From: a virus
DNA: 64,000 bases
IMG/VR virus record: IMGVR_UViG_3300028837_004134
Span: 1-64,000 of that record
Strand: one strand, 5' to 3'
Made by a program: the position numbers and the translations under genes. The notes below the pieces were generated by a model. It saw nothing but the letters and a program-made list of their open reading frames with translations, was not told where the DNA came from and did no database searches. Positions 7,711-24,550 of this stretch are shown piece by piece; the first letter of the stretch is position 1, and every line of letters starts with the position of its first letter.

Positions 7711-7716
7711 AAGCGA

Positions 7717-8036: not shown

Positions 8037-8062
8037 TCGTCGCTGCAGAGAGGGAGGATTCT

Positions 8063-11000
8063 TCAGACGAGGAAGGTGACGTCGTAGGTAGCAGTGCGGC
8101 GGACAGAGAGCGAAGACCGGTTGACCGTAATGTCGAACCCGACCTGTCGGATGGTGTCCAGGTCGTTCGAGAACCGCTGGGCGAACTGTTGGACGGAGTT
8201 CATGTGGAAGGAGAGGCCGAAATCCTTGGACAATCGTTTCAGGGCCACGAAGAGATCGCGTGCGAGAGCGCCCTCGATTGTCGTCTCATCCTGGAAGTCG
8301 ATCTGGTAACGTTCGAGAAAAGCCGCCTTGTTCGTCTTGGCGACATTGGCGGCGGTGCTCTCCTGGTCAGCCTCCAACGCATGGCGGTAGGCCTTGAACA
8401 GCGCGGCCAAGACCGTGGCGATGGGGTTCGATTCCCGGGCGGTTTCGAGGCTGACACTGTTGAGCGTGGCAATCCGGTCCAGGAACTGCGGGTGGAGTTC
8501 ATCAAGGGCCTGGTCGATCACTTCCGGCGGTTCGCCTGCCAGCATCATCAGGTACATCAGGCTGAGGTAGTCGTTGCAGCGGCGCTTGCCGTGGTTGCCC
8601 AGGGTCCTGTGGAGCAGGCGCATCACCTTCTCCTGCGCACCGTCCCGCAGCATGGCCAACACCTGACAGGTGCGTTTCATCATGGCGGAGACGATGAGGT
8701 CGCGGTGCTCCCGAATGGCGGCCAGGATTTTCGCCTCTAAGAAGCAGTCGCTGGCCTGCTCGTCCATTTCAAAGCGGATGATGAAGGAGCGGGACAATAT
8801 CTCGGCCAACTCTCCGCCAAGCGGCTCGATGCCGGTGGTGTTGAGCAGGCACTTGGTGCGCTCGATCACCGTCTCGGTATCGGTCCCGCTCTTGCGCTTC
8901 TCCTTGGCGATCCCCGTGATGCTAGTCAGGATGAAGGTTGTCAGGTCCTCGGTCATCTGTTTGACCTCGATGTTGTCGAGGACAATGAGCGGGTTCTGCG
9001 AACCGTCGGTGTAGTTGGCCGCGTCGGTGCTTTTCTTCTGCTGGGGCTCACCGTACAGCATAGCCGATATCAGTTTGCTGGCTGTGGTTTTACCCGAGCC
9101 GGCTGGACCTTCGAAACGTGTCATCGGCCGCGTGCCGGCGAAATCGATGAGCAAAAAGCAGGACAGCCACGAGAGGATCAGAGATCTTTCGCCCGGAGCG
9201 CAGGTCATGTTGTCCAGGATCAACTCCACCAGAAGGCGGTCGGCTTCGTCGGGGTCAGCGTCCGGCAGATAGCGGATCGGGGCCATCTTGCGTGAGCCGT
9301 CCAAAATGATGCCATCCGCATTGCCGCCGTTCTTGAGAACTTCGATTTCATCCGGCGTGATGCTGACGATCTCGTGATCGGTGTTGTTGAGGTTGAAGTA
9401 GATGGTGTTCTGCGCCACGTCCGTGTGGAGCCACGAGAAGTGGTCCCGCACCTGCCCGCGCTCAACGGCGAGGTTGGCCAGCACCTCGTAGAAGGTGCGT
9501 CCGCCTCCGGTCGTTTGTACAAGGCCCGTGTGCTTGTAAATGGTCGAGGAATAGAGCCTTTTGCGGCCGCGGTCCGGCGTGTCCATCCAGAATATGGCGT
9601 CCTCGAAGAACATGAACGGCTCGCCCTGCGGCGTGCGAAAGAAGCGTGCTCCGTTGGCAGCGAACCACTCGAAAGCGGCCTCGGCTTTACGGGGATAGTC
9701 CGGCGATCCAGATTCCTCCTCTGTTTCAAACATCACCTGCTCAATTCGGGCCCGGCAGGAGCTGGCCGGCGCGCCGGTGCGACGTTTCTCCTTTCTCCTG
9801 TCCTGCCTGGCATGCGACTGTCGATCCTTTTGCACCGCGCGGACCTGATTACGCAGAGTGCCCAAGGACAAGTCCGATTTCCCGAACTGGTTCTGGATGA
9901 GCTTCAGGTAGCGGTCCTGTTCCAGGGGCGACAGACGGGCGATCTCAGCGAGGACAGGCTCCAACAATCGATTTCGTTCTTCCTCGGACACTTCGCTTGG
10001 CAGTCGGGAGATGCCGAACTCCAACGGCATCTTCGCCTCGGCGATAAGTCCCTCGAAATCCGCCGCGGTGTGCCCGGCGGCGAAGAAATCGTTGACATCG
10101 ATCTTGGCTGCGGCCAGAAGTTCTTCAGCTTCCCTGACTTCTTTTTCCGGTTGTTCGGCAAGGCGCTGGGTGAGCTCTCGCGGCCCCACCGCCGCATCCA
10201 GGCCGAAGCGCTCTTTGAGCTCTTTGCGGGCGCTTTCCCGATGCTCGTCGAGGGGAAGGACCACCAGTCTGGTTTGAATCTTGTGCCCGGCGAGAACGGA
10301 CGCGGTTTTAAGCGCACCGTGCAATCCGGCTTGGGATAACTCGTTGTCCTGGCAGATGTAGACGGTCTTGACGCTGCGCAGGCGCGGCAGCAGCCTTTCC
10401 CAGTCGGCGGCCCGGATACGGACCGTGACCGGCGACACAGCTGCGAACCCATGCTCCATGAGCGAAATGCAATCGGTAACGCCCTCGGTGATGATCAACC
10501 GCTCCGGGCCGGTGAGCAGGCAGTCCTCGTTATAGAGGTAGCTGTTGTCGATGCATGGGGCAATGTGCTTGTTCGAACTGTCGTTATGGACCGGGAGCTT
10601 TTTATACTTGGCATGCTCCCAGTTCCGGTCAGGAGTCCACGGAGTTTTGCGGCCGATCATGAAGACCACACGCCCACGACTCCAGTATGGGAAGACGATG
10701 CGCCGGTTGAAGAAGGGATCAAGTCCGTCCTGGCTTGTCGGGCGGAACGCGCCGGATGCGGCCAAGTCTCGGAGAGAAAACCCAAATTCCTTTCCGGTCA
10801 GATTGCTGACGATGCCTTCCGCCGGTTTACCGGTCTGACCCGAGGGGTCGTCGTCCGCAAATCCAATGAGGAGGTTGTCAATAGTCTCCTCGGAAATGCC
10901 GTATTTGGAGCGGAGCCATTCGAGGACCTCGGGGTTATTCTTGAGGCGCCCGTGATAGTGTTCCGCCAACGCGGTCAGGACCGCATGAACACGTAGTTCG

Positions 11001-11404
11001 GTCAGGCGTTCGGCTTCGGCCGCCGCAAGTTCCTCTGGTGACAACCCGTGCTTGGCCAGGGGCGGAAGCCCCACCTTCGCGGCGAGGAAATCGCGGGCCC
11101 GCTGGTGGCTCTCCGGCATAGAGCCGGATTGACCCCGCGTCACGAAACCAGAATGGATGAACTCCACCAGCTGCAACACATCGCCGCCCACGCCGCAGCC
11201 GAAACAGTACCATCCCTGCTTGTCCAGCATGATATGGAGCGACCGGTGAGATTGGCTCTTGTGGTTAGGGCAATCGCACTGAAGAAGGCGAGCGGATTCT
11301 TGCAAGACCCTGCTACCAAGGAACTCCCGAGCGATCATGCCGATGTCCAACCCGGTAATCCGCCGGTAGTAGTCCTTCACGTTGTTCGGTTGTTTCGATA
11401 CCAT
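8063..11404 (-). CDS. Primase-helicase: CHC2 zinc finger, TOPRIM, C-terminal P-loop ATPase (copy 1)
   Basis: CPNH...CFGC, ITEGVTD/CQDNE/DVND, EGPAGSGKTT; likely start at ATG 11404. Confidence 0.9.
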   Translation of the reverse strand: MVSKQPNNVKDYYRRITGLDIGMIAREFLGSRVLQESARLLQCDCPNHKSQSHRSLHIMLDKQGWYCFGCGVGGDVLQLVEFIHSGFVTRGQSGSMPESHQRARDFLAAKVGLPPLAKHGLSPEELAAAEAERLTELRVHAVLTALAEHYHGRLKNNPEVLEWLRSKYGISEETIDNLLIGFADDDPSGQTGKPAEGIVSNLTGKEFGFSLRDLAASGAFRPTSQDGLDPFFNRRIVFPYWSRGRVVFMIGRKTPWTPDRNWEHAKYKKLPVHNDSSNKHIAPCIDNSYLYNEDCLLTGPERLIITEGVTDCISLMEHGFAAVSPVTVRIRAADWERLLPRLRSVKTVYICQDNELSQAGLHGALKTASVLAGHKIQTRLVVLPLDEHRESARKELKERFGLDAAVGPRELTQRLAEQPEKEVREAEELLAAAKIDVNDFFAAGHTAADFEGLIAEAKMPLEFGISRLPSEVSEEERNRLLEPVLAEIARLSPLEQDRYLKLIQNQFGKSDLSLGTLRNQVRAVQKDRQSHARQDRRKEKRRTGAPASSCRARIEQVMFETEEESGSPDYPRKAEAAFEWFAANGARFFRTPQGEPFMFFEDAIFWMDTPDRGRKRLYSSTIYKHTGLVQTTGGGRTFYEVLANLAVERGQVRDHFSWLHTDVAQNTIYFNLNNTDHEIVSITPDEIEVLKNGGNADGIILDGSRKMAPIRYLPDADPDEADRLLVELILDNMTCAPGERSLILSWLSCFLLIDFAGTRPMTRFEGPAGSGKTTASKLISAMLYGEPQQKKSTDAANYTDGSQNPLIVLDNIEVKQMTEDLTTFILTSITGIAKEKRKSGTDTETVIERTKCLLNTTGIEPLGGELAEILSRSFIIRFEMDEQASDCFLEAKILAAIREHRDLIVSAMMKRTCQVLAMLRDGAQEKVMRLLHRTLGNHGKRRCNDYLSLMYLMMLAGEPPEVIDQALDELHPQFLDRIATLNSVSLETARESNPIATVLAALFKAYRHALEADQESTAANVAKTNKAAFLERYQIDFQDETTIEGALARDLFVALKRLSKDFGLSFHMNSVQQFAQRFSNDLDTIRQVGFDITVNRSSLSVRRTATYDVTFLV

Positions 11405-11440
11405 TTCGGCTCCGCCTTCACTGATTTCCACGCTGATAGA

Positions 11441-11469
11441 TACATACCGATCAGAAACGCATTCTGACG
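11441..11469 (-). promoter_or_regulatory. Bipartite promoter motif P3
   Basis: CGTC-N15-TCGGTATGTA upstream of primase. Confidence 0.65.
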
Positions 11470-11556
11470 GCGACCGGAAGATGTGTTGCGTTTTGTGCTC
11501 AGAAATGTTATTATTTAGCCTTTAATGATCACGAGTGGAGATGGAGACGGTGATTC

Positions 11557-11745
11557 ATGACTACCTGGTTGACTCTGGAAGAAGCAGCGAAGCACTTGAA
11601 AATTGGCAAGTCCACGATCTACCGTCTGGCTCGTGAAGGTGACCTGCCGGCCCACCGGATGGGACGGGTCTGGCGTTTTGATGTAGAAGAACTGGATGCG
11701 TGGGTAAAGAACCACCGCACAATAGACAAAAGGCCCCGCCCATGA
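11557..11745 (+). CDS. Excisionase-family HTH protein
   Basis: WLTLEEAAKHLKIGKSTIYRLAREGDLPAHRMGRVWRF. Confidence 0.85.
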   Translation: MTTWLTLEEAAKHLKIGKSTIYRLAREGDLPAHRMGRVWRFDVEELDAWVKNHRTIDKRPRP

Positions 11746-11827
11746 GCGGGCTGGAGATGTTACGGCGGTTTCTTGATAGGGAGAAAAACATGGTCTTCTC
11801 AGCGTTCAGAATGACTTGGCGGTGTGG

Positions 11828-11907
11828 TACGTGAGAACCGCAATGATCTGTGCCCATTCCTCAACCGGGGACCCTCGGGTGTCCGCAGCCTCATGGACGG
11901 GCTATGA
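11828..11907 (+). pseudogene. intI: 3' remnant of an integron integrase
   Basis: Reads YVRTAMICAH / LNRGPSGVRSLMDGL-stop across a frameshift, resembling the IntI C-terminus DVxTTMIYTHVLNRG...VRSPxDxL. Confidence 0.65.
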
Positions 11908-12021
11908 CAAGGAGGTTCTTTTGCTGATCCGCACAACACGGCGAGCAAAACGGTTGAGGCGGCGACAACCCAAGGAAATAGGAAGGGTTGGTGCACTGAC
12001 TGGAGGATTTCTAGAGGTGTT

Positions 12022-12082
12022 TTATGCGGTTAGAAACAAGCAACTCCGCATTTTATGAGGATTCATCTAATCATTGTTGGGC
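12022..12082 (+). other. attI-like integron recombination site 1
   Basis: TAATCATT-GTTGGGC (GTTRRRY core 12076-12082) with upstream TTATG repeats; 11-mer TAATCATTGTT shared with the site at 57154-57164. Confidence 0.6.
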
Positions 12083-12137
12083 GGCCTAGTGTAGGGTCGT
12101 ACTCCGTTTGTACTAAGCATTCCCGGAGGGCAATGGG

Positions 12138-12926
12138 ATGACAGATAAAGATGCGGCTCAAGGACAAGGTCTCATTCAATTCTTGTTGGGTCGGGTCTTA
12201 CCCAGAATTGATGTCTTCTCAACATCGGAACAACCGCCAACCGATATGTCAAAAAGTCCTGCTATGGCATCAATGTTCGTAGAGGATCCGTCCTCGACAC
12301 TAGGCGATTTCTTGTCGACATTCCGCGGCAAACTTATGGAAGGAAGATATTGGACCGTGTTCTATGACCCCAGATTGCCTTTCGTCTTGAAGTTATCGAA
12401 AAGGCCACGTTCAAGAAAATCAATGGGTAGAAGGGCCACGAAGGATTTCACTCTCATATCCAGGTATCTAAGTAATCACGTCCCATGGCAATGTGTGTTC
12501 GAAGCAGATCTCTCCAAAACCGAAAAAGCCTACTTACTAGTTCAGGACTTGATAGTACAAGAGTACTCTCTTGGTGCTATTGGGACTCCTGCGCTGCATT
12601 GCAGCAATCCAATGATAGACCGAATACTGTCTAGCGCCAGATTGAAGGAGAACGTACTGGATTTCATTGATTGTGTGGTAAGAATGAACCGAGAGGTGCT
12701 GGCAGTTCCAGACCTTTGGGGTGCAACTAACCTGATAATCCACAGAAGTTCAATAACGTTAGTTGATACCAGTGTGTTATACTCGCCGGCAGAGGATGCA
12801 TCCGAAGGTCGTGAAGGGTATTTCATGATTTGTCGCTTTATCAATGAGTTACTGTGGCTCTTGGGGCAACCGGAATGCATCGCTTTCAGCAAGGCACCCA
12901 GAAACATCTTTTCGCTGGAGTATTAG
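12138..12926 (+). CDS. Divergent protein-kinase-like fold protein
   Basis: MEGRYWTV (Gly-loop-like), FVLK, YLLVQD, PDLWGATNLII (catalytic-loop-like D...N), ITLVDT (DFG-like). Confidence 0.5.
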   Translation: MTDKDAAQGQGLIQFLLGRVLPRIDVFSTSEQPPTDMSKSPAMASMFVEDPSSTLGDFLSTFRGKLMEGRYWTVFYDPRLPFVLKLSKRPRSRKSMGRRATKDFTLISRYLSNHVPWQCVFEADLSKTEKAYLLVQDLIVQEYSLGAIGTPALHCSNPMIDRILSSARLKENVLDFIDCVVRMNREVLAVPDLWGATNLIIHRSSITLVDTSVLYSPAEDASEGREGYFMICRFINELLWLLGQPECIAFSKAPRNIFSLEY

Positions 12927-12938
12927 ACGGTAACAGTC

Positions 12939-15900
12939 ATGGCTACGATAACTTGGCTCCACATATCAGACCTGCACATAGATTCGGAGAATTCAGCAGA
13001 TTGGCATCTAGAGAAGAAGGCCTTGTTGAGCGATATAAGAGACCATCAGACAAAAGAAGGGGCCTCTCTACCAAATAGGGCAGGCATTGTCTTAAGGCCT
13101 GACTTCGTTTGCATAACGGGAGACCTGGCTTGGTCTGGGAGAGAGCAGGAGTATGAACAAGCAGTCCAGTTTGTTGATGAACTACAGGAGATCATCCGTG
13201 TACCTAAAGACAGAGTCTTCATAGTACCAGGCAATCACGACGTCAATCGTGGAGTGGTTGAGGATGATTTCTTATATCAAGCTGCGTTTGACAAGCTGTC
13301 CAATCCCAATCAGTCTTCGGAGGACTTGTACTTAGAACTTAAAAGAGCTTGGCCTCTGCGAGCCTTTTTTGCTGCCAAGCTCCAGAACTTCGCTTCCTTT
13401 CTTCGATTGTTAGGGAAAAGCCCTGCGGCGAATCTAGCCTTCCTTGAGAGAGTCGAAGTAGGGGAAATTCCTATTGAGATCTTGGGAATAAACTCAAGCT
13501 GGATGAGCTGCAGAGATAACGAAGACTCAGAGCGGCGGCTGTTGATAGGATTGCCACAGGTTGACGAGTTGCTGGAAAAAATAGCGCCCGATGTCAAGGT
13601 TCGTATCGCGATGTTCCATCACCCGTCTACTGCGTTGCATCATAGGGACGTACAAACAGCCTATGACTTGCTCACAAAGAGATGCCCAATTGTCCTCCAT
13701 GGTCATCTTCATGAGCAACGCATTAGATACTCAAAGGAGCCCGAGAGGGAACATCTGCTGGTTTCCGCCGGTGCGACCTACTCGGATCGTAGTAGATGGG
13801 CAAAGAATGCCTACAATTATGGCGTCTTAGATAGTGATGAAGGAACCATTACAGTCTATCTTAGAAAGGCAACGCGAGGAGCAGAAATTCTCTATATCCG
13901 AGATGTAGAGACATATCCCCAAGCTTGTGATAGAGGCTCTTATACCTGGGAACTCGATCGATTGTCACCTTTTCTTGCAGAGAGGAAAGAGAGAACTGGA
14001 ACCACAAGGGTTGACGTTGATACCTACCTACAGCAGCTACTAGAGAAGACATCCTGCATAGACATTCGCGGCTTGGGAATAGGAGTTGGGAAAGCTCATT
14101 CATTTCCTATTCATGACCTGTATGTGGAACTAAAGGCAAGAACTTCCGACGTATTAGTGTCAGCTGAAAGGGAAGACAGCGATGCATTCTCTGAGACGAT
14201 CATCCCTCTAGATGATGTCCTCCAGCAAAGTCATAGGACTGTCATAATCGGGGATCCTGGTTTTGGAAAAAGCACTTTCCTCAATCGTGTTGCTAACGCT
14301 TTGTGTCTTTCCCAACTTGGAATAGACCCTGATGCTCACCACCGGTTACTTGGATTAGGTCAGGCATATTTCCCAATACTGATAAGAGTTTCTGAGTTTT
14401 CTGAATATCTTGAGGCGGTCAGCATCAATGAGGGAGCAGTAGGATCGAGTATGCCATCAACTGCTAGTTCTCCTTCTTGGTTATTTCAGTTCCTGGCTAC
14501 ATACGGCAGAGAAAGAAACTGGAGACTTGATGAGACATATTTCCAAGCCAAGCTAAGTGCTGGGGACTGCATCGTTCTGCTCGATGGTCTAGACGAGACT
14601 CCGGACCGCCGAATGCGACGGCGCGTCAGGCACATCATTGACGAGGCGGTGGCTGTCTACAAAGACTGCAAGTTCATTGTTACTACTAGGCCTGTGGCTT
14701 ACGAGAGCGATAGTCTGTTAAGCGGCTTTTCAATGGTAACCGTTGCTGGGCTAGGTGAACTGGCGATAAAAGACTTTGTGGTGAGGTGGACAAATGGACT
14801 CAAAGGTGCGGACACAGGAGAAACCAAGCAGCTGCGACAAGAGCTTCTGACAGCTATTAACAGTCGCGAGGAAATTGCAAGGATGGCTCGTAATCCTGTT
14901 ATGCTAACGGCGCTTTGCGTAGTTCATTGGAATGAAAAACGCATCCCGGAACAGCGAGTCGAACTGTATGCAACTGTGATCAATTGGTTACTTCGCTCTC
15001 GTGAACGGCGCAAGAACCGGGCCAGTGAAAGTGAAACAAAGCGCTGGCTAGCAGTGCTTGCGTTCGCTATGCAGTCTTCGTCTAGGGGGCGAGTGATTAC
15101 TATCCCTCTGAGAGAGGCTTCTGAGGCAATTGCCCATGCGTTTAGTGGTACCTCTGCACAGGAAACGATAACTAGCGCGGAGAACTTCCTTTTGCAGGAA
15201 CAGGTGGACAGTGGAATCATCTTGGCTAGAGGGAACAACGTAACTTTCTGGCACCCAACATTCATGGAGTATTTAGCAGCGGTCGCCATAGCCGGAAAAC
15301 CGGACAAGACTCAGAGTGAGATTCTATTCAAGGGTGAAAGAGCCTTTCATCCAGAGTGGCAAGAAGTGGTATTGCTCCATGCTGGGGTTCTTTCGACCCA
15401 AGGCTTCGATAAGGTCAGCCAATTCTTGAGTCGGCTGCTGAGAGTTGGTGACGAGAACGCAGATACTCGTTTTAGGGCACTGGGCCTTGTTGGAGCAATA
15501 CTGCAGGACTTGCGACCCGTTGGCTTTTCATTCGAACCACCCAAGTTACTGAACATGGTGAGAAAATGCACATATGCCCTGGATCGGCAAGATGTTCTGT
15601 TCAAGGACCGTATATCGGCAGGTCTGGCGATCGGATACATTGGAGATGAGAGATTGAAAAGAGACGCTATTGAGAGAAGCTTCATAAGAATACCGCCTTG
15701 CGGACTCAAGAGAGGCGATGACCACGGGGAACCGCGCGAACATCCTTCCAACTTCGTAAAGCTAAGTGAGTATTGGATCGCGCGTTATCCGGTTACAAAT
15801 CGCGAATTCAGGGAGTTTGTTGATGACGGAGGATATGAAGATCCTCAATGGTGGGGAGGAAGCAGATCTACGTATTGGAGATGGCGACTGAATGGGAAAG

Positions 15901-16496
15901 TGTCTTTGCCCAAACACTGGGGAGATCGACTTTGGAATGCTCCGAACCTGCCGGTAGTCGGTGTGTCTTGGTATGAAGCTGTCGCATACACTGTGTGGTA
16001 CACGGCTAGGTGCAGGTCGGTCACAATCTACAGACTACCTACAGAAGCAGAATGGGAGCGCGTTGCCAGAGGAGCTCATGAGGGGGGACGAGTTTTCCCC
16101 TGGGGAGATGTCCCCCCCGATCCACACACGAATCTTGTAGCCAACTATGGTGATATGGGCATTGCGAAAACAACGCCAGTTGGTGTTTTCCCAGCTACAT
16201 ATCCAAATGAAAGTAATGAGGAGAAGATCTATGATTTGGCAGGGAACGTATTCGATTGGTGCTTTGACTGGTTTCGCGAGGGATATGAACCAGGATTTCA
16301 TGTTAATCCGACAGGCCCCAAAAGGGGAAAGCAACGTGTAGTCAAAGGCGGCTCTTGGTATCGATCCGTAAGACACCTTAGGTGCGGCTACCGAGGACAT
16401 GCCTACCCTGGCGAACGAGCCGATACCATTGGGTTTCGCCTTGTCAAGGTATTTCTGGCTAATGGAGGAGCTGTCAGCGATGTTTCTGAAGAATGA
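12939..16496 (+). CDS. Metallophosphoesterase - NACHT NTPase - FGE/SUMF1 (C-lectin fold) protein, NLR-like
   Basis: HISDLH, ITGD, VPGNHD, HH, HGHLH; GDPGFGKST, LLDGLDE, NPVML, FWHPTFMEY; RLPTEAEWE, DLAGNV, KGGSW, GFR. Confidence 0.92.
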   Translation: MATITWLHISDLHIDSENSADWHLEKKALLSDIRDHQTKEGASLPNRAGIVLRPDFVCITGDLAWSGREQEYEQAVQFVDELQEIIRVPKDRVFIVPGNHDVNRGVVEDDFLYQAAFDKLSNPNQSSEDLYLELKRAWPLRAFFAAKLQNFASFLRLLGKSPAANLAFLERVEVGEIPIEILGINSSWMSCRDNEDSERRLLIGLPQVDELLEKIAPDVKVRIAMFHHPSTALHHRDVQTAYDLLTKRCPIVLHGHLHEQRIRYSKEPEREHLLVSAGATYSDRSRWAKNAYNYGVLDSDEGTITVYLRKATRGAEILYIRDVETYPQACDRGSYTWELDRLSPFLAERKERTGTTRVDVDTYLQQLLEKTSCIDIRGLGIGVGKAHSFPIHDLYVELKARTSDVLVSAEREDSDAFSETIIPLDDVLQQSHRTVIIGDPGFGKSTFLNRVANALCLSQLGIDPDAHHRLLGLGQAYFPILIRVSEFSEYLEAVSINEGAVGSSMPSTASSPSWLFQFLATYGRERNWRLDETYFQAKLSAGDCIVLLDGLDETPDRRMRRRVRHIIDEAVAVYKDCKFIVTTRPVAYESDSLLSGFSMVTVAGLGELAIKDFVVRWTNGLKGADTGETKQLRQELLTAINSREEIARMARNPVMLTALCVVHWNEKRIPEQRVELYATVINWLLRSRERRKNRASESETKRWLAVLAFAMQSSSRGRVITIPLREASEAIAHAFSGTSAQETITSAENFLLQEQVDSGIILARGNNVTFWHPTFMEYLAAVAIAGKPDKTQSEILFKGERAFHPEWQEVVLLHAGVLSTQGFDKVSQFLSRLLRVGDENADTRFRALGLVGAILQDLRPVGFSFEPPKLLNMVRKCTYALDRQDVLFKDRISAGLAIGYIGDERLKRDAIERSFIRIPPCGLKRGDDHGEPREHPSNFVKLSEYWIARYPVTNREFREFVDDGGYEDPQWWGGSRSTYWRWRLNGKVSLPKHWGDRLWNAPNLPVVGVSWYEAVAYTVWYTARCRSVTIYRLPTEAEWERVARGAHEGGRVFPWGDVPPDPHTNLVANYGDMGIAKTTPVGVFPATYPNESNEEKIYDLAGNVFDWCFDWFREGYEPGFHVNPTGPKRGKQRVVKGGSWYRSVRHLRCGYRGHAYPGERADTIGFRLVKVFLANGGAVSDVSEE

Positions 16497-17292
16497 GTGT
16501 TGCGTTGTGAAAGAAGAGGAAAGCCAAGATAGGATTGTAAGCAAAGTGGCTGTCGTCGTTGCAACTCACAACCGTCCTTGGATGCTCGAAGGGGCGCTTA
16601 TCAACATTCTGTCGCAATCTTTCTGCAATCTCTCGATACTAATCGTCGACAATGGTAATCTACCAGAGACAGAGACAATCGCTCGAACCTACATGCGTTT
16701 GGATCCGCGGATAACGTACATAAAGAATGTGATGCGAAAGGGAGCTGCGGCAACAAGAAATCACGGCTTATTCTCTCTGAGCAGAGAGATAAAGCATGTT
16801 CTGTTTCTTGATGATGATGACCGTTTTTCAGAGCAAGACAGCTTAAAAAGCCTTGTGGAATCGCATTTGGCAGATTCTAGGAGGTTGATGACCTATGGAA
16901 TACAGCGAGATGTGAACACCGATGGCTCTTTGTATCAGATATGGCCCTGTCGAAAAGAGTGTCTTACCGATATGATAATCGATGATAATAAGGTTCAATT
17001 TCCTGCGCACACAGTGCTGTGGAATGCAGTATTTGCAAGGTGTTTGGGTGGATATTCATTTCAGTTCGAGAATGACATGGAGGATATTGCCTTTATCGTA
17101 AGAGGATTTGCCAACCTAAGATCTGACCCTGATAGTATCGCGTATGTGGATTCCCCCATCGTGAATTGGAGGCGAGGAAACATCGAAGAGGACACCCTTC
17201 ACTCTAAGGTTCGCAGAAACGAGAAATCCAGAATTCTCGTCAGGCGGAGAATCAAGAGGATCATACTGCACTACAGTGGATACAGGTCTTAG
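16480..17292 (+). CDS. Glycosyltransferase family 2
   Basis: VVVATHNR, IVDNG, GAAATRNHG, FLDDDD (DxD), ED motif; GGAGGAG RBS before ATG 16480; overlaps NACHT stop. Confidence 0.88.
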   Translation: MFLKNECCVVKEEESQDRIVSKVAVVVATHNRPWMLEGALINILSQSFCNLSILIVDNGNLPETETIARTYMRLDPRITYIKNVMRKGAAATRNHGLFSLSREIKHVLFLDDDDRFSEQDSLKSLVESHLADSRRLMTYGIQRDVNTDGSLYQIWPCRKECLTDMIIDDNKVQFPAHTVLWNAVFARCLGGYSFQFENDMEDIAFIVRGFANLRSDPDSIAYVDSPIVNWRRGNIEEDTLHSKVRRNEKSRILVRRRIKRIILHYSGYRS

Positions 17293-17356
17293 CGGGTGTG
17301 AGTGAGCTATGCCGTTGGCCGGTCTGTCGTCAGCGGCCGTTGGAACCTACAACAGG

Positions 17357-18356
17357 TGTGATATGACGTACCTCGTGGGACAGTTCTCCAGTTATTATAA
17401 CATACTTCTGAGGGCTTCGTAAGGAGTTTTTCCGTCGAACGCACCGTGGGGACGACCAAAGTTGTAGAATCGTTCCCATTCCTCCAGTTTCTTGTTCAGA
17501 TCCACATCGTCAGTGTAGGTCAGCAGCTGATAAAACTCCTCTTTGTCGGAACGGTGAGATCGCTCGACTTTACCGTTTAGCTGCGGTGAACGGGGTTTGA
17601 TGTAAACATGGCGGATACCTCGATCCTCTACGTGCCAGTGGAACAGAGCTTGGAATTCGTGTCCTCGATCGGTTCGGACAGTATGGATGCGAAAGGGAAA
17701 CTTCTCGATCACGTAATCTATGAAATCTATGGCGTTCTTCTGAGTATGGCGCTTGTAGATCCTCAGGGCTCTCACCCGAGTAGCATCGTCGATGGCGGTG
17801 TACTGGAAACGACGGATCTTCTTGCCTTCGGTGTTCTTGAGAGTAAGAAACGTCACGTCAACCTGGATGTGATGGCCAGGAACCCGTTTTGCATAACGCC
17901 TGGTGTGGATAGCCCGACGGCCGACGTTTCTGGGCAAGCGTCTCAAGCCATGGCGGATAAGGGTTCGATATACGCTCGAACTGGAAGTCTTAACAGCGTG
18001 ATAACGCCCCAGATACCAAGTGATTCGCTCAGGCCCGAAGTGATACACCTGCCTCAGATGAAGGATCTTCTCGACCACCTCCGGGGACAGCTGTCGCGGA
18101 TGACTCTTTGCAATTGGCCTCTTCCGAGCCAATCCCGCATCACCATGTCTGGCGTAAGCTTCCTTCCACCTGTAGAACGTTGATCTGGGCACATCCCACT
18201 CCCGGCAAGCCTCAGTAACGCTGCAATGCGCCTCGGCCCACTCCAACACCAGCTTCTTCAGTCTAATTGATCGAATCGGACAGATCGACATACCAACCTC
18301 CACATTGTGGCTTACATGATAACACAATATGTCCCGCAAGGTCTGGTATATCTACA
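17357..18356 (-). mobile_element. IS481-family insertion sequence
   Basis: Imperfect TIRs TGTGATATGACGTACCTCGTGGGACA / TGTAGATATACCAGACCTTGCGGGACA; no target duplication visible. Confidence 0.85.
17395..18291 (-). CDS. IS481-family DDE transposase
   Basis: HTH N-terminus, IQVDV, RTDRGHEF, PQLNGKVERSHR, YNFGRPH. Confidence 0.92.
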   Translation of the reverse strand: MSICPIRSIRLKKLVLEWAEAHCSVTEACREWDVPRSTFYRWKEAYARHGDAGLARKRPIAKSHPRQLSPEVVEKILHLRQVYHFGPERITWYLGRYHAVKTSSSSVYRTLIRHGLRRLPRNVGRRAIHTRRYAKRVPGHHIQVDVTFLTLKNTEGKKIRRFQYTAIDDATRVRALRIYKRHTQKNAIDFIDYVIEKFPFRIHTVRTDRGHEFQALFHWHVEDRGIRHVYIKPRSPQLNGKVERSHRSDKEEFYQLLTYTDDVDLNKKLEEWERFYNFGRPHGAFDGKTPYEALRSML

Positions 18357-18550
18357 ATCTTGGGCTTCGTGGAGCCGTTTGACGCCGTAGAAGCGCCGAT
18401 AGAGCCGTTGCTCGTGCTGTCACGGCCAAGTTCCTCATAGGCCGTCATGCTGACGTTGGTGGCGAATCTGAACGCCCTGGCCACCGCTCTGGTCTCGGCC
18501 ATGCGGATCAAGTGCGGTGCGATCCACTCGTTCACATTGTCGGGGCTGGC
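18357..18550 (-). pseudogene. 194-bp fragment of the Rad52-like gene at 23669..24232
   Basis: Colinear near-identical copy of 23847..24040 (NEWIAPHLIRMAETRAVARAFRFATN); cut by IS481 on one side. Confidence 0.85.
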
Positions 18551-18578
18551 CCGTCTGAGCGACTTTCTCGGTGAAGGA

Positions 18579-18719
18579 GTATCAGAAGTACCACCCTGTG
18601 AAAGATCGTGGCTTACAGGGCGGTTTAGGCGTCAAACCGGCTTGGTTTGGCTTGGCAGCCAGAGGGGTGAGCCCCGGTGCAATGGGAGGGATATTGCACC
18701 TTAAAGGGGCTTCTGATAC
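18579..18719. mobile_element. Possible MITE
   Basis: 141 bp non-coding, bounded by perfect 10-bp inverted repeats GTATCAGAAG / CTTCTGATAC. Confidence 0.4.
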
Positions 18720-18753
18720 AGTCTACTGTCGTGGTCGCACACCACAGCCATTA

Positions 18754-21700
18754 CTATGGACAGGTCGGCTCAGGCCCCTCGTTGAACATATAGTCCACCA
18801 GGTATACCAGGTCAGCAATATCGATCAGCCCGCCACTGGCATCCACGTCGGCCGCTTCCATAACTGGCGGTTCCGGGCCGCTATTGAACATGAAGTCCAC
18901 CAGGTAGACAAGATCAGCGATATCGATTGGCAGTGTGCCGCTACCGTCGATGTCGCCGCAGGACGAGGTGGCTGCCATTAGAGCGACTGCAACCTGGCCG
19001 CCAATGCCATTCTCAGGGAAGGCCACGATGTTGAGTAGGGACGTCTGGTAAAAGGAGACCGGAGACGGTACCCAGTTCAGTGAAACGGTGTATGTAGCTG
19101 GTACTTCCTCCCCGGGCTGCAGGTCCGGAAGTGGAACCGAATCGCTGCTATGGATTGTGACAAAGCCGGCATCGTGTATCTGACAGTAAACGCCCGTAGC
19201 CACAGCATCACCGATGTTCCTGACCGTCAGGTCAATTGTGACAAGCGAATCACGAGTTACAAGAGACCATTCTGGGGTAGCCGTGATTGAGAGTGTGGGA
19301 ACTGCTGGAATATCAATTAGTAGTCCGATCACACTATCGACCAGCATCCAGCTATCAGCTAACTGCGTCACTACAGTGTCGAAGGTGGATGTCGAAAGCG
19401 TGTTGAATTCAGCATCAAAGGGGTTCAATTGAAGTCCCAAGGCAACGAACGAACCCTGTAATAGCCGCAAGTTCGCGTTTGTGATAGCTGTGTCGGCTTG
19501 TTCGAGAGCGGCGTCGAAATCAGGTATGGTTGCTCGCCCACTATCAGCTTTCGATGTAAGGACTCCCGATGACTGCGAGAAGACGGCCATGACTAAATCC
19601 GCACTTACAATTAGGCTCTCGGCGGCAGTCCATGTTTCAAGTGAATCTCCAGATAGAGCAGCAGCGGTTACGCTGTCACACCAGTCGGAGTAGGCTGAGA
19701 TTTCTTGGGGAAGTGGCGCCTTTGAAGCCGAGCTGCTTCTGGTATTGCCGGCTGCCAACACCATTCCTGGTGTGTGCATTGGATACATCGGGGGGGCCGT
19801 GCCATGATAGACAAAGAATGCGCCGAGAGTTATTTCAGTCTGAATGGAGATAGCTGTCTCAAGTGCCTCTCCGGCTGCCATTATTGAATGACCAGACTTG
19901 TTTACTCCGACCAGATCGCCAAAAAGCTCCACCGCCTTCTTAACCCACTTAAGCTTGAAAAAACCTTCGTCCATCGCATCAGACAACTCTTGAAGCCTTT
20001 CTGCCACACCCATTCCACCAGCATCTTCTTCGTGCTGGGCTATGACAGCTGCCGACTGATCGGTCATGTCTTTGATATTAGACCACCTATCCTGGAAGTT
20101 ATCGGTGGCTTCCTCAAGAGTATTGGAGTAGTTGTAGACTGTCGACCAGCTACCGGCGTCATCAAGAGCATCCTGTGTGGAGGGAACATGTATCAGGCTG
20201 AGTGCGGCTTCATCAAACACAATCCGAACGGCTGCATTGTTTATAAGGCAATCCGAGACGTGTTCGCTTGCGAGACAGTTTATTAACCCAGCCTTGACCT
20301 GATCGAACAGCATACCCCACGTTCGACGTACATCCTCATCAGGAATGAACCTCCTGATCTCTCCAAAAATGTCGAGAATATATCCAAGGACTGTCTTCAG
20401 CACTTTCTTCAGCAGCTTGGCAATCATCCCACCTTTCTCTCCAAGCGCCAAGAAAGCTAAAGCCGGCGTTATGGCCGATATGGTGTTCTTGACTGCTGAA
20501 TCCCACATCTCCTCCGCACCCCTTACTGTCTCTGTTTCCGGTGGTGGGTCTGCTGCATCAGGAATGTAACGGTAACCGGCGTTCACCAACTTAGCTACCA
20601 TCAAAAGCCTTTGGAAAGTCTCCAGTTGCACTTCCGTCGGATAGCCGGGTCGGATTACATTATCCACAAACGAATTGGCATCCTGCATTTCATAACTGTT
20701 CACGACCGGGATAGGGATAATTGTGCCCACAAATAGGTCGATTTCAAGATTCTCCAGGCGATCTTTAATAAAGTCATACTGCGCCAACTCCACCGGCGTT
20801 CCATCAGGATTGTGGACCTGGTAAGTCACAGAAACTACTTCTGGGCTGTTATCGGCGTTGCTGCTCGTGACGGTCATAACTTCGTTGTACGTACCAGGAT
20901 TCAGATCAGTGGTGTTGATGGTAACGGTGATCTCCTGGTAGTTACTCGTACCGTAGTACAGGTCGATATCCAACCAGGGAATCTGCTCATCTATGTACCA
21001 GTCCAGCGTACCGCCGCCCGTATTCGTTATAGTCAAAGTTTGATTATCAGGTAAGACATCATTCTGAGCTGCAGCAAAGTGAAGACTGGAGGGACTTAAT
21101 TGGATGTGCGGACCAGACGAGATCGCATACTCAATGGCCAAGTATTCTGGGCTGTTGTCGGCATTGGTGCTCGTAACCGTCATGACTTCGTTGTAAGTCG
21201 CCGGCGCTAAACCCGTGGTGTTTACGGTTACAGTGATCTCAGCGTAGTTGGATGTGCCGGAAAACGGGGTTATGTCCAGCCAGTCGATTTGTTCGTCTAT
21301 GTGCCAGTCCAGCGTTCCGCCACCGGTATTGGATATCTCAAACGTCTGCGGGGTGGGTGTAGGATCATCTTGGACCGCCAAGAAGCTGAGATTAGTTGGC
21401 GTCAGTGAAATGTGCGGACCGGCAGATACAGTATATTCGACCGTCACAAATTGCGGGCTGTTATCGGCGTTGGAGCTGGTCACGGTCATCACTTCATTGT
21501 AGGTGCCTGGTGCCAAACCGGTGGTATTTATCGTAACCGTTATTTCCTGGCTGTTGCCCGGTCCTTGCCGTATATCAAGATCCAGCCACTCAATCTGCTC
21601 ATCCACGTACCAGTCAAGCGTTCCGCCGCCGGTATTTGATATCTCAAACGTCTGCGGGGTGGGTGTAGGATCATCTTGGACCGCCAAGAAGCTGAGATTA

Positions 21701-22593
21701 GTTGGCGTCAGTGAAATGTGCGGACCGGCAGATACAGTATATTCGACCGTCACAAATTGCGGGCTGTTGTCGGCGTTGGAACTGGTAACGGTCATAACTT
21801 CATTATATGTCCCCGGAGCAAGCGATGTTGTGTTGATTGTAGCCGTAATCTCCTGGCTGTTGCTCGTGCCGAAGTAAGGGGTAATATCTAACCAGGAAAT
21901 CTGCTCGTCAATGTACCAGTCCAGTGTACCGCCGCCCGTATTTGATACGGAAAATGTCTGTTCGGTTGGAGCCACACTGTTTTCTGCGCCTTGAAAGATC
22001 AAATTCTCTGTCGACAGTGCGATATGGGGAAGGTCCTGTGATTGATATGCCCAGGGAATCCAATTGACAGGTCCACTGATTCCTGCAGCAATCGTAGCTG
22101 AGTCAGTTGTACCCCAGTAGTTATACTGGGCGTTGGTTGAAGTACCAGATGAATTGACAATATTAAAATCAGTGTTGTCATATATATCACAACTGTAGTC
22201 TAAAGAACCACCAATGATAAGCGGTCTTGAAGCATTAATATTATAGAGTCCATCTCCCACATTACCGATAATGTGACAGTTTTCAAAAATAATTTCAGAA
22301 GCAATTGAACAATACACACCACAGTTTAAGTTATTGGCGATTAGACAATGTCTAAAAATCTTGGGATAGTCAGCATCCTTTGACCGAGCATATACACCAG
22401 CCTGAGCGACACCGAATAAAGTATCCACTGCCCCGGCATACTTGATATCACAGTAAAGTAAACTATCGGAAAGCGTGTAACTGTGATATTTTATCCCAAC
22501 CCAGTCACCTGGCTGGGGGACAGGTGCATTGGAAGTGAAAACTATCCGGTTATCAGGAGTCCCGTTGGCCTCAGCGATAAACCACATCGTCAA
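18754..22593 (-). CDS. Large surface/secreted protein, main fragment: beta-helix, 4 BACON-like repeats, helical region, Ig-like domain, dockerin-like C-terminus
   Basis: Four ~100-aa ISNTGGGTLDW...WLDI repeats; CGDIDGSG...DIADLVYLVD x2. Confidence 0.85.
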   Translation of the reverse strand: MTMWFIAEANGTPDNRIVFTSNAPVPQPGDWVGIKYHSYTLSDSLLYCDIKYAGAVDTLFGVAQAGVYARSKDADYPKIFRHCLIANNLNCGVYCSIASEIIFENCHIIGNVGDGLYNINASRPLIIGGSLDYSCDIYDNTDFNIVNSSGTSTNAQYNYWGTTDSATIAAGISGPVNWIPWAYQSQDLPHIALSTENLIFQGAENSVAPTEQTFSVSNTGGGTLDWYIDEQISWLDITPYFGTSNSQEITATINTTSLAPGTYNEVMTVTSSNADNSPQFVTVEYTVSAGPHISLTPTNLSFLAVQDDPTPTPQTFEISNTGGGTLDWYVDEQIEWLDLDIRQGPGNSQEITVTINTTGLAPGTYNEVMTVTSSNADNSPQFVTVEYTVSAGPHISLTPTNLSFLAVQDDPTPTPQTFEISNTGGGTLDWHIDEQIDWLDITPFSGTSNYAEITVTVNTTGLAPATYNEVMTVTSTNADNSPEYLAIEYAISSGPHIQLSPSSLHFAAAQNDVLPDNQTLTITNTGGGTLDWYIDEQIPWLDIDLYYGTSNYQEITVTINTTDLNPGTYNEVMTVTSSNADNSPEVVSVTYQVHNPDGTPVELAQYDFIKDRLENLEIDLFVGTIIPIPVVNSYEMQDANSFVDNVIRPGYPTEVQLETFQRLLMVAKLVNAGYRYIPDAADPPPETETVRGAEEMWDSAVKNTISAITPALAFLALGEKGGMIAKLLKKVLKTVLGYILDIFGEIRRFIPDEDVRRTWGMLFDQVKAGLINCLASEHVSDCLINNAAVRIVFDEAALSLIHVPSTQDALDDAGSWSTVYNYSNTLEEATDNFQDRWSNIKDMTDQSAAVIAQHEEDAGGMGVAERLQELSDAMDEGFFKLKWVKKAVELFGDLVGVNKSGHSIMAAGEALETAISIQTEITLGAFFVYHGTAPPMYPMHTPGMVLAAGNTRSSSASKAPLPQEISAYSDWCDSVTAAALSGDSLETWTAAESLIVSADLVMAVFSQSSGVLTSKADSGRATIPDFDAALEQADTAITNANLRLLQGSFVALGLQLNPFDAEFNTLSTSTFDTVVTQLADSWMLVDSVIGLLIDIPAVPTLSITATPEWSLVTRDSLVTIDLTVRNIGDAVATGVYCQIHDAGFVTIHSSDSVPLPDLQPGEEVPATYTVSLNWVPSPVSFYQTSLLNIVAFPENGIGGQVAVALMAATSSCGDIDGSGTLPIDIADLVYLVDFMFNSGPEPPVMEAADVDASGGLIDIADLVYLVDYMFNEGPEPTCP

Positions 22594-23013
22594 AGTAGTT
22601 GCTAACTAAATGGATGCCCCCACTGTCATTGGAAGAAATTGTGCAATTTTCAATTGAACTGTAAGCAGATCGACCGTAATCATAAATACCATAACCGGTG
22701 CAATTAGTAATGGAACAATCGACTAATTCCAGAGTGTCAGTACTCGCACCCATAAACACGCCTGATCCAAGAATGGAATCAATCGTGCAGCTCTTAATCT
22801 GTTTTAGCTTGTCGGCCTGACCACGGAAATATACACCAGCCTGAGCGACACCGAACAAGGTATCCACCGCCCCGGCATACTTGATATCACAGTAAAGTAA
22901 ACTATCGGAAAGCGTGTAACTGTGATATTTTATCCCAACCCAGTCACCTGGCTGGGGGACAGGTGCATTGGAAGTGAAAACTATCCGGTTATCAGGAGTC
23001 CCGTTGGCCTCAG
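22390..23013. repeat. 185-bp near-identical direct repeat (22390-22574 and 22829-23013)
   Basis: Both encode EANGTPDNRIVFTSNAPVPQPGDW...AQAGVY. Confidence 0.92.
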
Positions 23014-23150
23014 ACAATGTAAGGACTGCCATCTATGCTTAGTGTAGTATTCGTAGTTATGGCTCCACCAATATAGGTTTGAGCCGTAGAAACATCACTC
23101 ACAAACAATATTATTGTTACAACGGATAAAATACAGATAAATACCTTCAT
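22571..23150 (-). pseudogene. Disrupted 5' part of the same surface-protein gene
   Basis: Signal peptide MKVFICILSVVTIILFVSDVSTA from ATG 23150, then ...GSPYIV-stop; a second fragment 22571..23032; both breaks at CTGAGGCC. Confidence 0.75.
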
Positions 23151-23668
23151 AGCTTCCCCCTGTATCCTAAATGTTTAGATTGATTTCTCAGAAACATCAA
23201 AAAAGCCCGTGTTTTGAAAACCAACGGGCTGCAGTGCTCTATTGATATATGATTTTGAATTTGACTAACTTCTGGATCGTCGAGTAAGCCCATATAAATA
23301 ACTCCAATTACGGTTTATTCTCAGGAGTGATGGACCAAGATGCATATCTTCCCAATAAAAGAAATATACTCAAACTTTCATGCTTGTCAATCCCGAAAGC
23401 CCTTATTGACGAGGGTTTCCGGACCTTAACTAACTCCTCGTCCTTGACTCCGTCATATGATAAATAGTCACATTCTATGTCTTTTGCAGAAAAAACATCC
23501 CTTTGAGTGCGAAATTTCAAATGTATAACAATATTGTAAACGCCGGAGTAAAAGTGTCCCAAGGGGCGGTCGAAAAGTGTGCCACCCAGGCTTCGCCCGA
23601 ACAGTAAGGACAAGAGGCCAGCACTACTCGGCACCGGCCCCTTGTTTCATGATGATCTGCGCAGCAAC

Positions 23669-24232
23669 CTACCCCACCTTGCCTTTCTTCGGACAAAGCT
23701 TCAACTGGTCGATGGCGTGTGACCCACCCGCAATGGGAATCTTGCCGGTCTTCGCCTTGTGATCGAACAGTTTCTGTATCTCCAGCTCCAGCTCGATCGG
23801 CACTTCCCGCTGGTCACACAGCGTGCGAATGTACTGCTCCTGAGTCATCTTGGGCTTCTTGGAGCCGTTTGACACCGCAGAAGCACCTACAGAGCCGTTG
23901 CCTGTGCTGTCACGACCAAGCTCTTCATAGGCCGTCATGCTGACGTTGGTGGCGAACCTGAACGCTCTGGCCACGGCCCTGGTCTCAGCCATGCGGATCA
24001 AGTGCGGCGCGATCCACTCGTTCACGTTGTCAGGGCTGGCGTCGCCCAGACCGTGGAAAGTGCCCTTGCTGGTTGTGACTTCGGCCGAGACAACTGCCAG
24101 CGGCTGGTCTTTTGTCGGCATGTGCAACAGGCAGGTTTTGACCGCGTTCAGCCCCTGTCGGTGGGCCTCGTCGAGCAGACCAGCGAACAGGATGTACTCC
24201 TTGCCGTTGGTAGGTGGTGATCGTCGCCGCAC
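23669..24232 (-). CDS. Rad52/Sak-like ssDNA annealing protein (probably 5'-truncated)
   Basis: GKEYILFAGLL...AVVSAEV...FHGLGDA...RMAETRAVARA pattern. Confidence 0.5.
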   Translation of the reverse strand: MRRRSPPTNGKEYILFAGLLDEAHRQGLNAVKTCLLHMPTKDQPLAVVSAEVTTSKGTFHGLGDASPDNVNEWIAPHLIRMAETRAVARAFRFATNVSMTAYEELGRDSTGNGSVGASAVSNGSKKPKMTQEQYIRTLCDQREVPIELELEIQKLFDHKAKTGKIPIAGGSHAIDQLKLCPKKGKVG

Positions 24233-24235
24233 CCA

Positions 24236-24550
24236 TCACGCGGCCCCCGTGGCTTTCAGCTCCGGAGAAACCGGATGCGCGTCTCCGACCCTTTCGACCT
24301 TGAACGCCTCTTCACCGAACTCACGGGAGAGGAACCCGGTGAAAATCCGGGCGATGGCGCGTCCGACATCAGTCGCCGCGTCCACCACGCAGGAACGCTT
24401 TTTCGAGTCCAGGCAGAAGGACGCATCAAGTCGTACCAAAGCTCGACCGTGCAGGCTCTCGGCGGCGAGCACGGCAAGGAGCAGAGACTCCTCGACGTCC
24501 CGGAATGGGACCTTGGTGTTGAAGTTGTATCTGTAGAGTTCGCGGTTCAT
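24236..24550 (-). CDS. Hypothetical protein of the element backbone
   Basis: Compact ORF with GGAGG RBS, directly downstream of promoter motif P4. Confidence 0.65.
   Translation of the reverse strand: MNRELYRYNFNTKVPFRDVEESLLLAVLAAESLHGRALVRLDASFCLDSKKRSCVVDAATDVGRAIARIFTGFLSREFGEEAFKVERVGDAHPVSPELKATGAA

Follow-up and report, generated by a model that had tools for sequence, protein, structure and literature searches.

We describe a three-gene operon, lying in a hotspot of variable content within an integrated phage-like element, in which a large STAND NTPase is encoded between an orphan protein with a predicted kinase fold and a soluble family-2 glycosyltransferase (GT2). On balance, we favour the view that the central gene is an NLR defence gene resembling DS-8, to which two trans-encoded enzymes were added on one occasion, the whole acting as an anti-phage or inter-element conflict module. 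ORF analysis of the window, by which we mean the entire 64,000-nt stretch of viral DNA analysed, shows that the three genes, termed A, B and C, span positions 12138–17292, all on the plus strand:

Gene A, 12138..12926, plus strand: 262 aa, orphan protein with a predicted minimal protein-kinase-like fold
Gene B, 12939..16496, plus strand: 1185 aa, STAND NTPase made up of a metallophosphatase, a NACHT module, a helical region and an FGE-sulfatase-like domain
Gene C, 16480..17292, plus strand: 270 aa, soluble family-2 glycosyltransferase (Pfam GT2)

The genes are tightly coupled and AT-richer than the backbone, as a sequence-only reading of this DNA had described: 12 nt separate A from B, B and C overlap by 17 nt, and the GC content is 0.46–0.50 over 12–17 kb compared to 0.56–0.60 at 8–12 kb. 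The start of A at 12138 is backed by a GGAGG upstream and by the N-terminal extension of the protein, which is kept in homologue P0006. The longest possible C ORF is open from 16399 (297 aa, overlapping B by 98 nt); most likely, however, gene C begins at ATG 16480, which has a GGAGGA 10 nt to its 5' side and agrees with the start of the C homologue P0136, and this start yields the 17-nt overlap of C with the B stop. A promoter and terminator scan of the operon gave no delimiting signal above shuffled expectation, and among the sequencing runs examined for the locus, no RNA run is listed as carrying it. One run labelled metatranscriptomic, flagged as probably DNA, contains identical short contigs, one of which crosses the A–B junction; these were not taken as expression.

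The proposal that the operon occupies the cargo slot of a mobile element is borne out by comparison of two diverged element copies, both present in the 83-kb provirus record. In blastn, 41–11517 matches 50760–63060 at 73–89% identity, and homology between the copies picks up again at 24282 and 74275, leaving two different variable regions in between. The slot is a variable hotspot, with the operon residing in copy 1:

Variable slot of element copy 1, 11518..24281, no strand assigned: delimited by blastn of the two copies
Counterpart slot of element copy 2, record positions 63061–74274: delimited by blastn of the two copies
HTH_17 gene (excisionase/AlpA-like), 11557..11745, plus strand: 62 aa, between primase and operon (Pfam E 2.4e-19)
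IS transposase, 17395..18339, minus strand: HTH and rve domains (Pfam), directly downstream of gene C

The cargo of this slot differs between the two copies and begins in each with a NACHT-FGE gene. The slot of copy 2 opens with a different NACHT-FGE gene, standing as a single gene, followed by a RecD-like helicase, which matches PADLOC models, and a methyltransferase. A Pfam scan of the small ORFs at 11.8–12.06 kb in copy 1 returned no integrase or other match. Samples containing this locus derive from marine sediment and the subsurface.

The protein encoded by gene B is tripartite, combining an effector (Metallophos), a NACHT module and a C-terminal sensor (FGE). Pfam recovers every domain previously called in B and C, namely Metallophos, NACHT, FGE-sulfatase and GT2, and the features of B are as follows:

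B residues 7–310, 12957..13868, plus strand: calcineurin-like metallophosphatase, predicted effector (Pfam E 1.2e-14)
B residues 41–51, 13059..13091, plus strand: 11-residue loop insertion xAxxPNRAGxx (alignment analysis)
B residues 433–618, 14235..14792, plus strand: NACHT NTPase core (Pfam 33.8 bits, cutoff 26.7)
B residues 914–1170, 15678..16448, plus strand: FGE-sulfatase (C-type-lectin-like) domain, predicted sensor (Pfam 162.3 bits, E 2.3e-47)

The phosphatase contains DxH (D11/H13), GD (D62), GNH (N99/H100), HH (227/228) and GHxH (256/258) motifs, and the NACHT core contains a Walker A motif GDPGFGKS (K444; GKS 443–445) and a Walker B motif LLDGLDE (D549/D552) with invariant residues. 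The residues D62, N99, H100, H227, H228, H256, H258 and K444 do not vary across 19 homologues; D11 and H13 were read directly from the sequence, outside this invariance analysis. Among NCBIfam models, the phosphatase matches DS8_antiphage at HMM positions 1–276 (E 1.9e-31) and DS9_1 (E 4.9e-21), and among PADLOC models PDC-S60 and 'Effector', while a search of PDB sequences gave one marginal match only, so that the phosphatase may be a nuclease or a nucleotide phosphodiesterase. Among B proteins, the loop insertion is confined to the three with an accompanying gene A. The FGE domain matches PDB FGE at E 1e-23 and, in the alignment, has no Cys at the positions of human FGE Cys336 or Cys341, leaving it without the catalytic pair; judged from these residues, the domain is catalytically dead, with the FGE fold but not a catalytic FGE. 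The 83-kb record contains no repeat of either FGE C-terminus of the kind expected from a DGR template. The metallophosphatase-NACHT-FGE architecture is common in metagenomes, and homologues of B swap the N-terminal domain (Metallophos, DUF4062, TIR, Pkinase, cyclase or HTH) on a constant NACHT-FGE body, which is typical of conflict systems. Relatives of B carry the NCBI name 'SUMF1/EgtB/PvdO family nonheme iron enzyme'.

The closest characterised counterpart by domain type is DS-8 (DefensePredictor system 8; NF053861 DS8_antiphage; PADLOC PDC-S60), a metallophosphatase plus NACHT protein that protects E. coli and in which both domains are essential (PMC13092281). Both proteins have an N-terminal metallophosphatase fused to NACHT, and homology between the two phosphatases is clear (E 1.9e-31). 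However, B scores 108.7 bits against a 790-bit equivalog cutoff and matches HMM positions 1–276 of 994 only, so that the DS-8 analogy rests on domain type; furthermore, the C-terminal sensor of B is an FGE-sulfatase domain, and B has A and C on either side where DS-8 consists of one gene. FGE/FGS domains have been described as antigen-receptor-type sensors of STAND/NACHT proteins, and NACHT/STAND conflict proteins have also been described with calcineurin-like phosphoesterases, kinases or glycosyltransferases among their components (PMC7159879; bioRxiv 10.1101/2022.07.19.500537; PMC13581612). The described FGS-sensor NACHT proteins (Kibby et al. 2022; Kaur et al. 2020; PMC13581612) have the effector-NACHT-FGS layout of B and, like the B lineage, interchangeable N-terminal effectors including phosphoesterase, TIR, kinase and DUF4062. 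Those proteins carry kinases and glycosyltransferases as fused effector domains; at this locus each is encoded by its own gene, with translational coupling, and the kinase comes from an orphan family. No catalogued multi-gene system was matched in PADLOC 2.0 or NCBIfam, where B's phosphatase matches and nothing does for A or C, and no kinase, glycosyltransferase and NACHT system was found in the literature. The earlier statement that no named system fits the locus therefore holds; its claim of novelty stands for the pairing with A and C, which is unnamed, but not for B, since a metallophosphatase joined to NACHT is of the DS-8 type and FGE sensors have already been described.

Gene A has no match in Pfam or NCBIfam (at E ≤ 0.1), PADLOC or PHROG, and lies outside curated kinase families, the sole sub-threshold Pkinase match being that of a distant relative, P0010. 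Its family comprises 9 relatives among 1.84 billion (1.84 G) representatives; the A alignment profile found no relative in viral, genome and metagenome contig collections, and tblastn of A found nothing in phage and plasmid collections. The best PDB sequence matches of the profile are mostly kinases. Foldseek with the AF2 model of A (pLDDT 81, pTM 0.81) placed RIO2, NleH and RIO1 on top, and every listed match is of protein-kinase-like fold, in most cases with probability 1.00; against RIO1 (1zp9_B), the VIA comparison gave Z 10.3 over 179 residues. The model allows us to predict confidently that A folds as a minimal RIO/NleH-like protein kinase, in line with the original description of A as kinase-like. 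The predicted catalytic set is K85, D192, N198 and D210 (P0001 numbering), and K43, D150, N156 and D168 (P0004 numbering) are invariant across 9 A family members. By order, spacing and profile matches, the Lys, Asp, Asn and Asp of A would be equivalent to the kinase motifs; the set appears intact and the kinase looks competent. With RIO kinases and with NleH, OspG and HopBF1, A shares a compact size, the Lys, Asp...Asn, Asp positions and a structural alignment over ~150–185 of 220 residues (Z 8.3–10.3). It differs from them in its identity of 11–17% and lack of a Pfam kinase match, in its catalytic loop VPDLWGxxN, which lacks a His-Arg ahead of the Asp and has an additional residue preceding the Asn, and in its context, which is neither ribosome biogenesis nor secretion.

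Gene C matches Pfam GT2 at 62.8 bits (cutoff 23.3, E 4.9e-17), with PADLOC and NCBIfam models giving no match. Its DxD motif, LDDDD (P0134 110–114), is invariant in 3 homologues, an ED motif follows at 201–202, and no membrane anchor is visible by eye in the sequence. Most language-model look-alikes of C are soluble tailed-phage GT2s annotated as morons, which we treat as a lead only. An AF2 model of C built from 3 sequences reached pLDDT 39.

A has only two close homologues, P0005 (43% identity) and P0006 (48%), and the closest homologues of B are P0015 (46%) and P0014 (59%). P0005 and P0015 each come from a contig of 29,379 nt (Logan), and P0006 and P0014 each come from a contig of 16,723 nt (JGI), the length also given for the JGI contig of P0136 (61%), the only full-length C homologue. 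A further related JGI contig measures 16,347 nt. Co-occurrence outside this locus was judged from identical contig sizes, gene order having been seen at this locus alone. A and B, and in one case C, appear to travel together on other contigs. The expectation that all three genes recur together is supported at 16,723 nt, where A, B and C coincide by size match, but not on the Logan contig, which has A and B and for which no C homologue was found. More distant B relatives have unrelated neighbour genes, and across ~160 of their loci, 0 encode a member of the A family or a GT2 resembling C. The three A-associated B proteins form one long-branched group (SH-aLRT 100), and the best reading of these relationships is that the association of A and C with the B lineage would have had a single origin. 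The set is known from three loci, all from uncultured organisms; since these loci represent one evolutionary event, retention of the set could reflect descent of a cassette and not function.

B might then be a self-sufficient, single-gene NLR-like defence, with A and C unrelated morons (host-takeover or surface/DNA-modification enzymes) co-inherited by descent only, an account that we consider unlikely but worth taking seriously. It fits the unrelated neighbours of the distant B relatives, the single origin of the linkage and the moron annotation of most C look-alikes. However, the linkage has outlasted divergence to 43–61% identity, the gene junctions are very tight, the B phosphatase has its private insertion, and the sole close members of the rare A family all seem to lie on contigs that also carry this B lineage.

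If gene B is instead a DS-8-like NLR gene that gained two enzymes, its NLR-like STAND NTPase core could work by analogy with DS-8 and bacterial NACHT/Avs proteins. In the order of events that we infer, the dead FGE/C-type-lectin-like C-terminal domain would bind an invader-derived ligand, the NACHT module would oligomerise in an NTP-dependent manner, and the N-terminal metallophosphatase would be switched on to attack a putative nucleotide or nucleic-acid substrate, halting infection and so accounting for the presumed defence function. The minimal kinase A and the soluble phage-type GT2 C would be lineage-specific trans partners that joined once and have been kept since. They would most likely be co-effectors or regulators modifying proteins or other macromolecules as their presumptive substrates, doing in trans the job of the fused kinase and glycosyltransferase domains of other NACHT proteins. 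Since DS-8 and other tested bNACHT genes work alone, and copy 2 has its NACHT-FGE gene standing alone, B may be able to do without A and C, and any dependence on them is conjectural. A complex prediction of A with B residues 1–345 plus 820–1185 gave a score of 0.00, which weighs neither way.

Plant NLRs pair with kinases, as in ZAR1-RKS1/PBL2 and Prf-Pto, where RKS1 is a pseudokinase. In an analogy of our own, the locus likewise ties an NLR-type STAND protein genetically to a trans-encoded small kinase-fold protein, with homology only at the level of fold class; moreover, gene A looks catalytically competent, unlike RKS1. It is conceivable, though we think it improbable, that the orphan kinase and the NLR function as partners and that this association is what the system is for, the kinase being either a guarded decoy or adaptor monitored by the FGE/NACHT protein in the style of these plant pairs, or with the GT2 the maker of a phospho-glycosyl mark read by the lectin-like FGE domain. 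If true, this would be a bacterial NLR sensing through a trans-encoded kinase.

The sequence-only reading had proposed a different mechanism, in which A as writer and the B phosphoesterase as eraser form a phospho-switch, and C adds a sugar or nucleotide mark read by the lectin-fold FGE domain, which would thereby sense modified self or target. This is compatible with the catalytic motifs kept in all three enzymes, with the non-catalytic, C-type-lectin-like fold of the FGE domain and with co-occurrence of the three genes, yet nothing ties the activities together and the scheme is speculative. Nucleotides or nucleic acids have been put forward as the targets of defence metallophosphatases of B's class (PMC13092281), rather than phosphoproteins, FGE sensors of other STAND proteins function without a partner glycosyltransferase, and C went undetected on the Logan contig with A and B; we regard the scheme as improbable.

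In the synthesis of the LPS core, GT2s work together with small kinase-fold proteins, which, along with the NCBI naming of B relatives, could suggest a housekeeping or envelope module (for instance an LPS-core-type kinase and glycosyltransferase with an FGE-family enzyme) and no role in immunity, but this is very improbable given the NACHT STAND core of B with its swappable effectors, the missing FGE catalytic cysteines, the low-GC variable slot of a mobile element, the lack of a visible membrane anchor in C and the position of A outside the Kdo/WaaP Pfam family.

With three loci, the set is very rare, and its general importance is limited unless a mechanism emerges. The orphan A family, which has almost no relatives, gains a fold and a likely context. 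Bacterial NACHT/NLR-like defence proteins have so far been treated as single-gene systems, with the enzymatic effector and the sensor fused in one protein. If one lineage has kept a catalytically intact kinase and a glycosyltransferase as separate genes of its operon, it would follow that NACHT sensors can recruit trans-acting modifying enzymes, and the locus would offer a tractable three-gene construct for testing such recruitment.

The IMG/VR provirus record (83,416 nt), of which the window covers the first 64 kb, carries three tightly spaced genes:

12138-12926, + strand, gene A, ORF of 262 aa, kinase-fold protein
12939-16496, + strand, gene B, ORF of 1185 aa, metallophosphatase-NACHT-FGE protein
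16399-17292, + strand, gene C, open reading frame with probable start ATG 16480, GT2 glycosyltransferase

The start of A at 12138, as placed by the sequence-only reading, is borne out by an upstream GGAGG and by retention of its first 40 residues in the homologue P0006. For C, ATG 16480 is the most likely start: GGAGGA lies 10 nt 5' of it, it is the start chosen by gene callers (P0134, 270 aa), and the homologue P0136 has it too. The tight coupling claimed in that reading is thus seen as a 12-nt gap between the A stop and the B ATG, followed by a 17-nt overlap of C with the end of B, suggesting co-translation. The operon is also AT-richer than its surroundings, as had been noted, with a GC content of 0.46-0.50 against 0.56-0.60 across the adjoining primase gene.

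Gene A has no match in Pfam, NCBIfam, PADLOC or PHROGs. A word-index search of 5.8 G proteins returned one non-self homologue, and a full HMMER profile search of 1.84 G representatives yielded nine proteins in all, only two of them close relatives (P0005, 43% identity; P0006, 48%). By order and spacing, the columns invariant over the nine family members (G, W, V, V, K, Q, Q, D, G, N, D) fit a kinase Gly-rich turn, beta-3 Lys (VLK), hinge (LQD/LQE), catalytic loop (D-L-x-G-x-x-N) and metal-binding Asp (VDT), and the catalytic set is apparently complete. Protein kinases (MSK1, CDPK, TP53RK) head the matches of the family profile to PDB sequences (E 1.5e-3 to 3e-2). The AF2 model is confident (pLDDT 81, pTM 0.81); the Foldseek matches listed for it from PDB and BFVD are of protein-kinase-like fold, with RIO2, NleH and RIO1 at the top, and VIA-align gives Z 10.3 to RIO1 (179 residues) and Z 8.3-8.7 to OspG, NleH and HopBF1. 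Together, these data indicate that A is a minimal protein-kinase-like protein, as its sequence had first suggested. Its catalytic loop is unusual, with VPD in place of HRD/HGD and one extra residue before the Asn; the distant relatives P0010-P0012 (326-348 aa) keep the standard D-x4-N spacing and carry an N-terminal extension of ~130-150 residues.

Gene C encodes a GT2 (62.8 bits). It carries an ED motif and an LDDDD motif, the latter invariant, and reading its sequence reveals no membrane segment. The search for homologues gave just two, at 83% and 61% identity. As leads only, proteins that resemble it by language model are mostly soluble GT2s from tailed phages, and its PHROG matches are 'moron' glycosyltransferases.

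The following elements were located in B:

Residues 7-310, Metallophos domain (Pfam)
Residues 41-51 (window 13059-13091), 11-residue PNRAG insertion between metallophosphatase motifs I and II
Residues 433-618, NACHT domain (Pfam, above threshold)
Residues 914-1170, FGE-sulfatase domain (Pfam)

B carries metallophosphatase motifs and Walker A/B residues, which, apart from the first motif (D11/H13), are invariant across 19 full-length homologues. Matches to NCBIfam DS8_antiphage (E 1.9e-31) and DS9_1 (E 4.9e-21) and to PADLOC PDC-S60 and 'Effector' are all limited to the phosphatase domain and far under the family cutoffs. Neither of the two catalytic cysteines of human FGE is found in the FGE domain, which can therefore be taken as a binding module rather than an enzyme. 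The record contains no DGR template repeat. This architecture is not rare, as PF00149 Metallophos, NACHT and FGE occur together in ~24 of the best 120 of 745 matches to B. Among the same best 120, the NACHT-FGE body also appears with DUF4062, TIR, Pkinase (fused in the relative P0033), cyclase or HTH, an exchange of N-terminal domains that is effector shuffling typical of conflict systems.

Co-occurrence of the trio elsewhere was judged from matching contig sizes of the homologues:

JGI contig, longest 16,723 nt: A, P0006 (48%, two contigs); B, P0014 (59%; its 90% cluster mate is on a 16,347-nt contig); C, P0136 (61%, two contigs)
Logan contig, 29,379 nt: A, P0005 (43%, single contig); B, P0015 (46%, single contig); C, none detected

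By this indirect but specific measure, all three genes appear to share a contig in the JGI case, and A and B in the Logan case. At ~160 loci encoding more distantly related NACHT-FGE or FGE proteins, we found neither an A-family ORF (hmmsearch E < 1) nor a C-like GT2; three full-length distant homologues have as neighbours unrelated genes or more NACHT-FGE or KAP-FGE paralogues. Such relatives also cluster, as two paralogous NACHT-FGE genes (L009:2247-10047) or as NACHT-FGE with KAP-FGE (L088:3099-9476). The three B proteins with an A homologue form one group on a long, fully supported branch, and they alone carry the PNRAG insertion, absent from the other 16 homologues and a candidate docking or regulatory loop. 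The single group, the insertion and the ~160 loci without A or C point to one acquisition of the association, apparently retained as the proteins drifted apart to 43-61% identity. This retention, with the tight junctions, favours a functional unit; less probably, the trio was co-inherited as one cassette with no functional tie.

The operon lies between the following features:

8063-11431, - strand, primase-helicase, upstream of the operon
11557-11745, HTH_17 excisionase-like gene, 62 aa
17395-18339, IS transposase (HTH + rve), directly 3' of gene C

A Dam-type methylase and a gpA-type large terminase also lie upstream on the minus strand, and large beta-helix/BACON proteins downstream. Block 41-11517 is repeated at 50760-63060 with 73-89% identity, and the match picks up again at 24282 / 74275, showing two diverged copies of one element, each with a variable slot of ~11-13 kb at the same position, in agreement with the proposed cargo slot of a mobile element. 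The slot of the second copy holds these genes, around and beyond the end of the window:

L004:3622-6603 (record 63622-66603), first gene, NACHT-FGE protein of 993 aa
L004:6653-9136, - strand, RecD2-like helicase matching PADLOC RecD/PDC-S68 models

In parts, this second NACHT-FGE protein shares 30-42% identity with B; its N-terminal ~150 residues match no known family. A double methyltransferase (1103 aa) follows the helicase. Both slots are laid out as expected of a defence hotspot in a mobile element. The IS transposase belongs to a widespread IS family, has copies of ~85% identity that reach higher depth in one cold-seep run, and may have reshaped the slot. On the minus strand at 18754-23032 lie a 1279-aa beta-helix/BACON protein and an adjoining 153-aa beta-helix ORF. 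Joints of the 'goes back' and 'skips' kinds, seen at 18766-18927 in contigs of several runs, hint at a segment that is repeated or variable, possibly a tail-spike-like or receptor-binding gene.

DS-8, a single-gene metallophosphatase-NACHT system, protects E. coli, and both its domains are essential (PMC13092281). FGE/FGS domains have been described as sensors of the antigen-receptor type in NACHT and other STAND proteins, and fused kinase and glycosyltransferase domains are known effectors of NACHT and related conflict proteins (PMC7159879; bioRxiv 10.1101/2022.07.19.500537; PMC13581612). By analogy, we slightly favour B as a DS-8-like NLR-type sensor, in which the FGE domain would bind a ligand, the NACHT module would then assemble and the metallophosphatase effector would act, with A and C as trans-encoded modifying enzymes in the role of co-effectors or regulators. 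Less probably, B is self-sufficient, as single-gene DS-8 is, with A and C as hitchhiking morons, a label that the PHROG matches of C share; retention of the trio through divergence argues for a functional tie. The write/erase switch of kinase and phosphatase with a lectin-type reader, proposed from the sequence, appears unlikely. A non-immune envelope or enzyme module is very improbable in a slot with the layout of a defence hotspot.

Full-length copies come from marine sediment and subsurface runs, and sponge and cold-seep metagenome runs of other studies contain short contigs of low coverage that match parts of A, B and C identically (window 12295-16683), showing that the same element is geographically widespread. 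PADLOC and NCBIfam match only the B phosphatase domain and nothing in A or C, in keeping with the sequence-only reading, to which no named system with this pairing was known; neither database contains an operon that combines such a sensor with an orphan kinase and a GT2, and no description was found in the literature searched. Like DS-8, B joins a metallophosphatase and a NACHT in one protein, whereas DS-8 is a single gene and B is flanked by A and C. B itself is a further member of an already known protein type, and the conserved orphan kinase and GT2 operon around it appears to be the new part. The locus is very rare and comes from uncultured organisms, here from marine sediment and subsurface samples.
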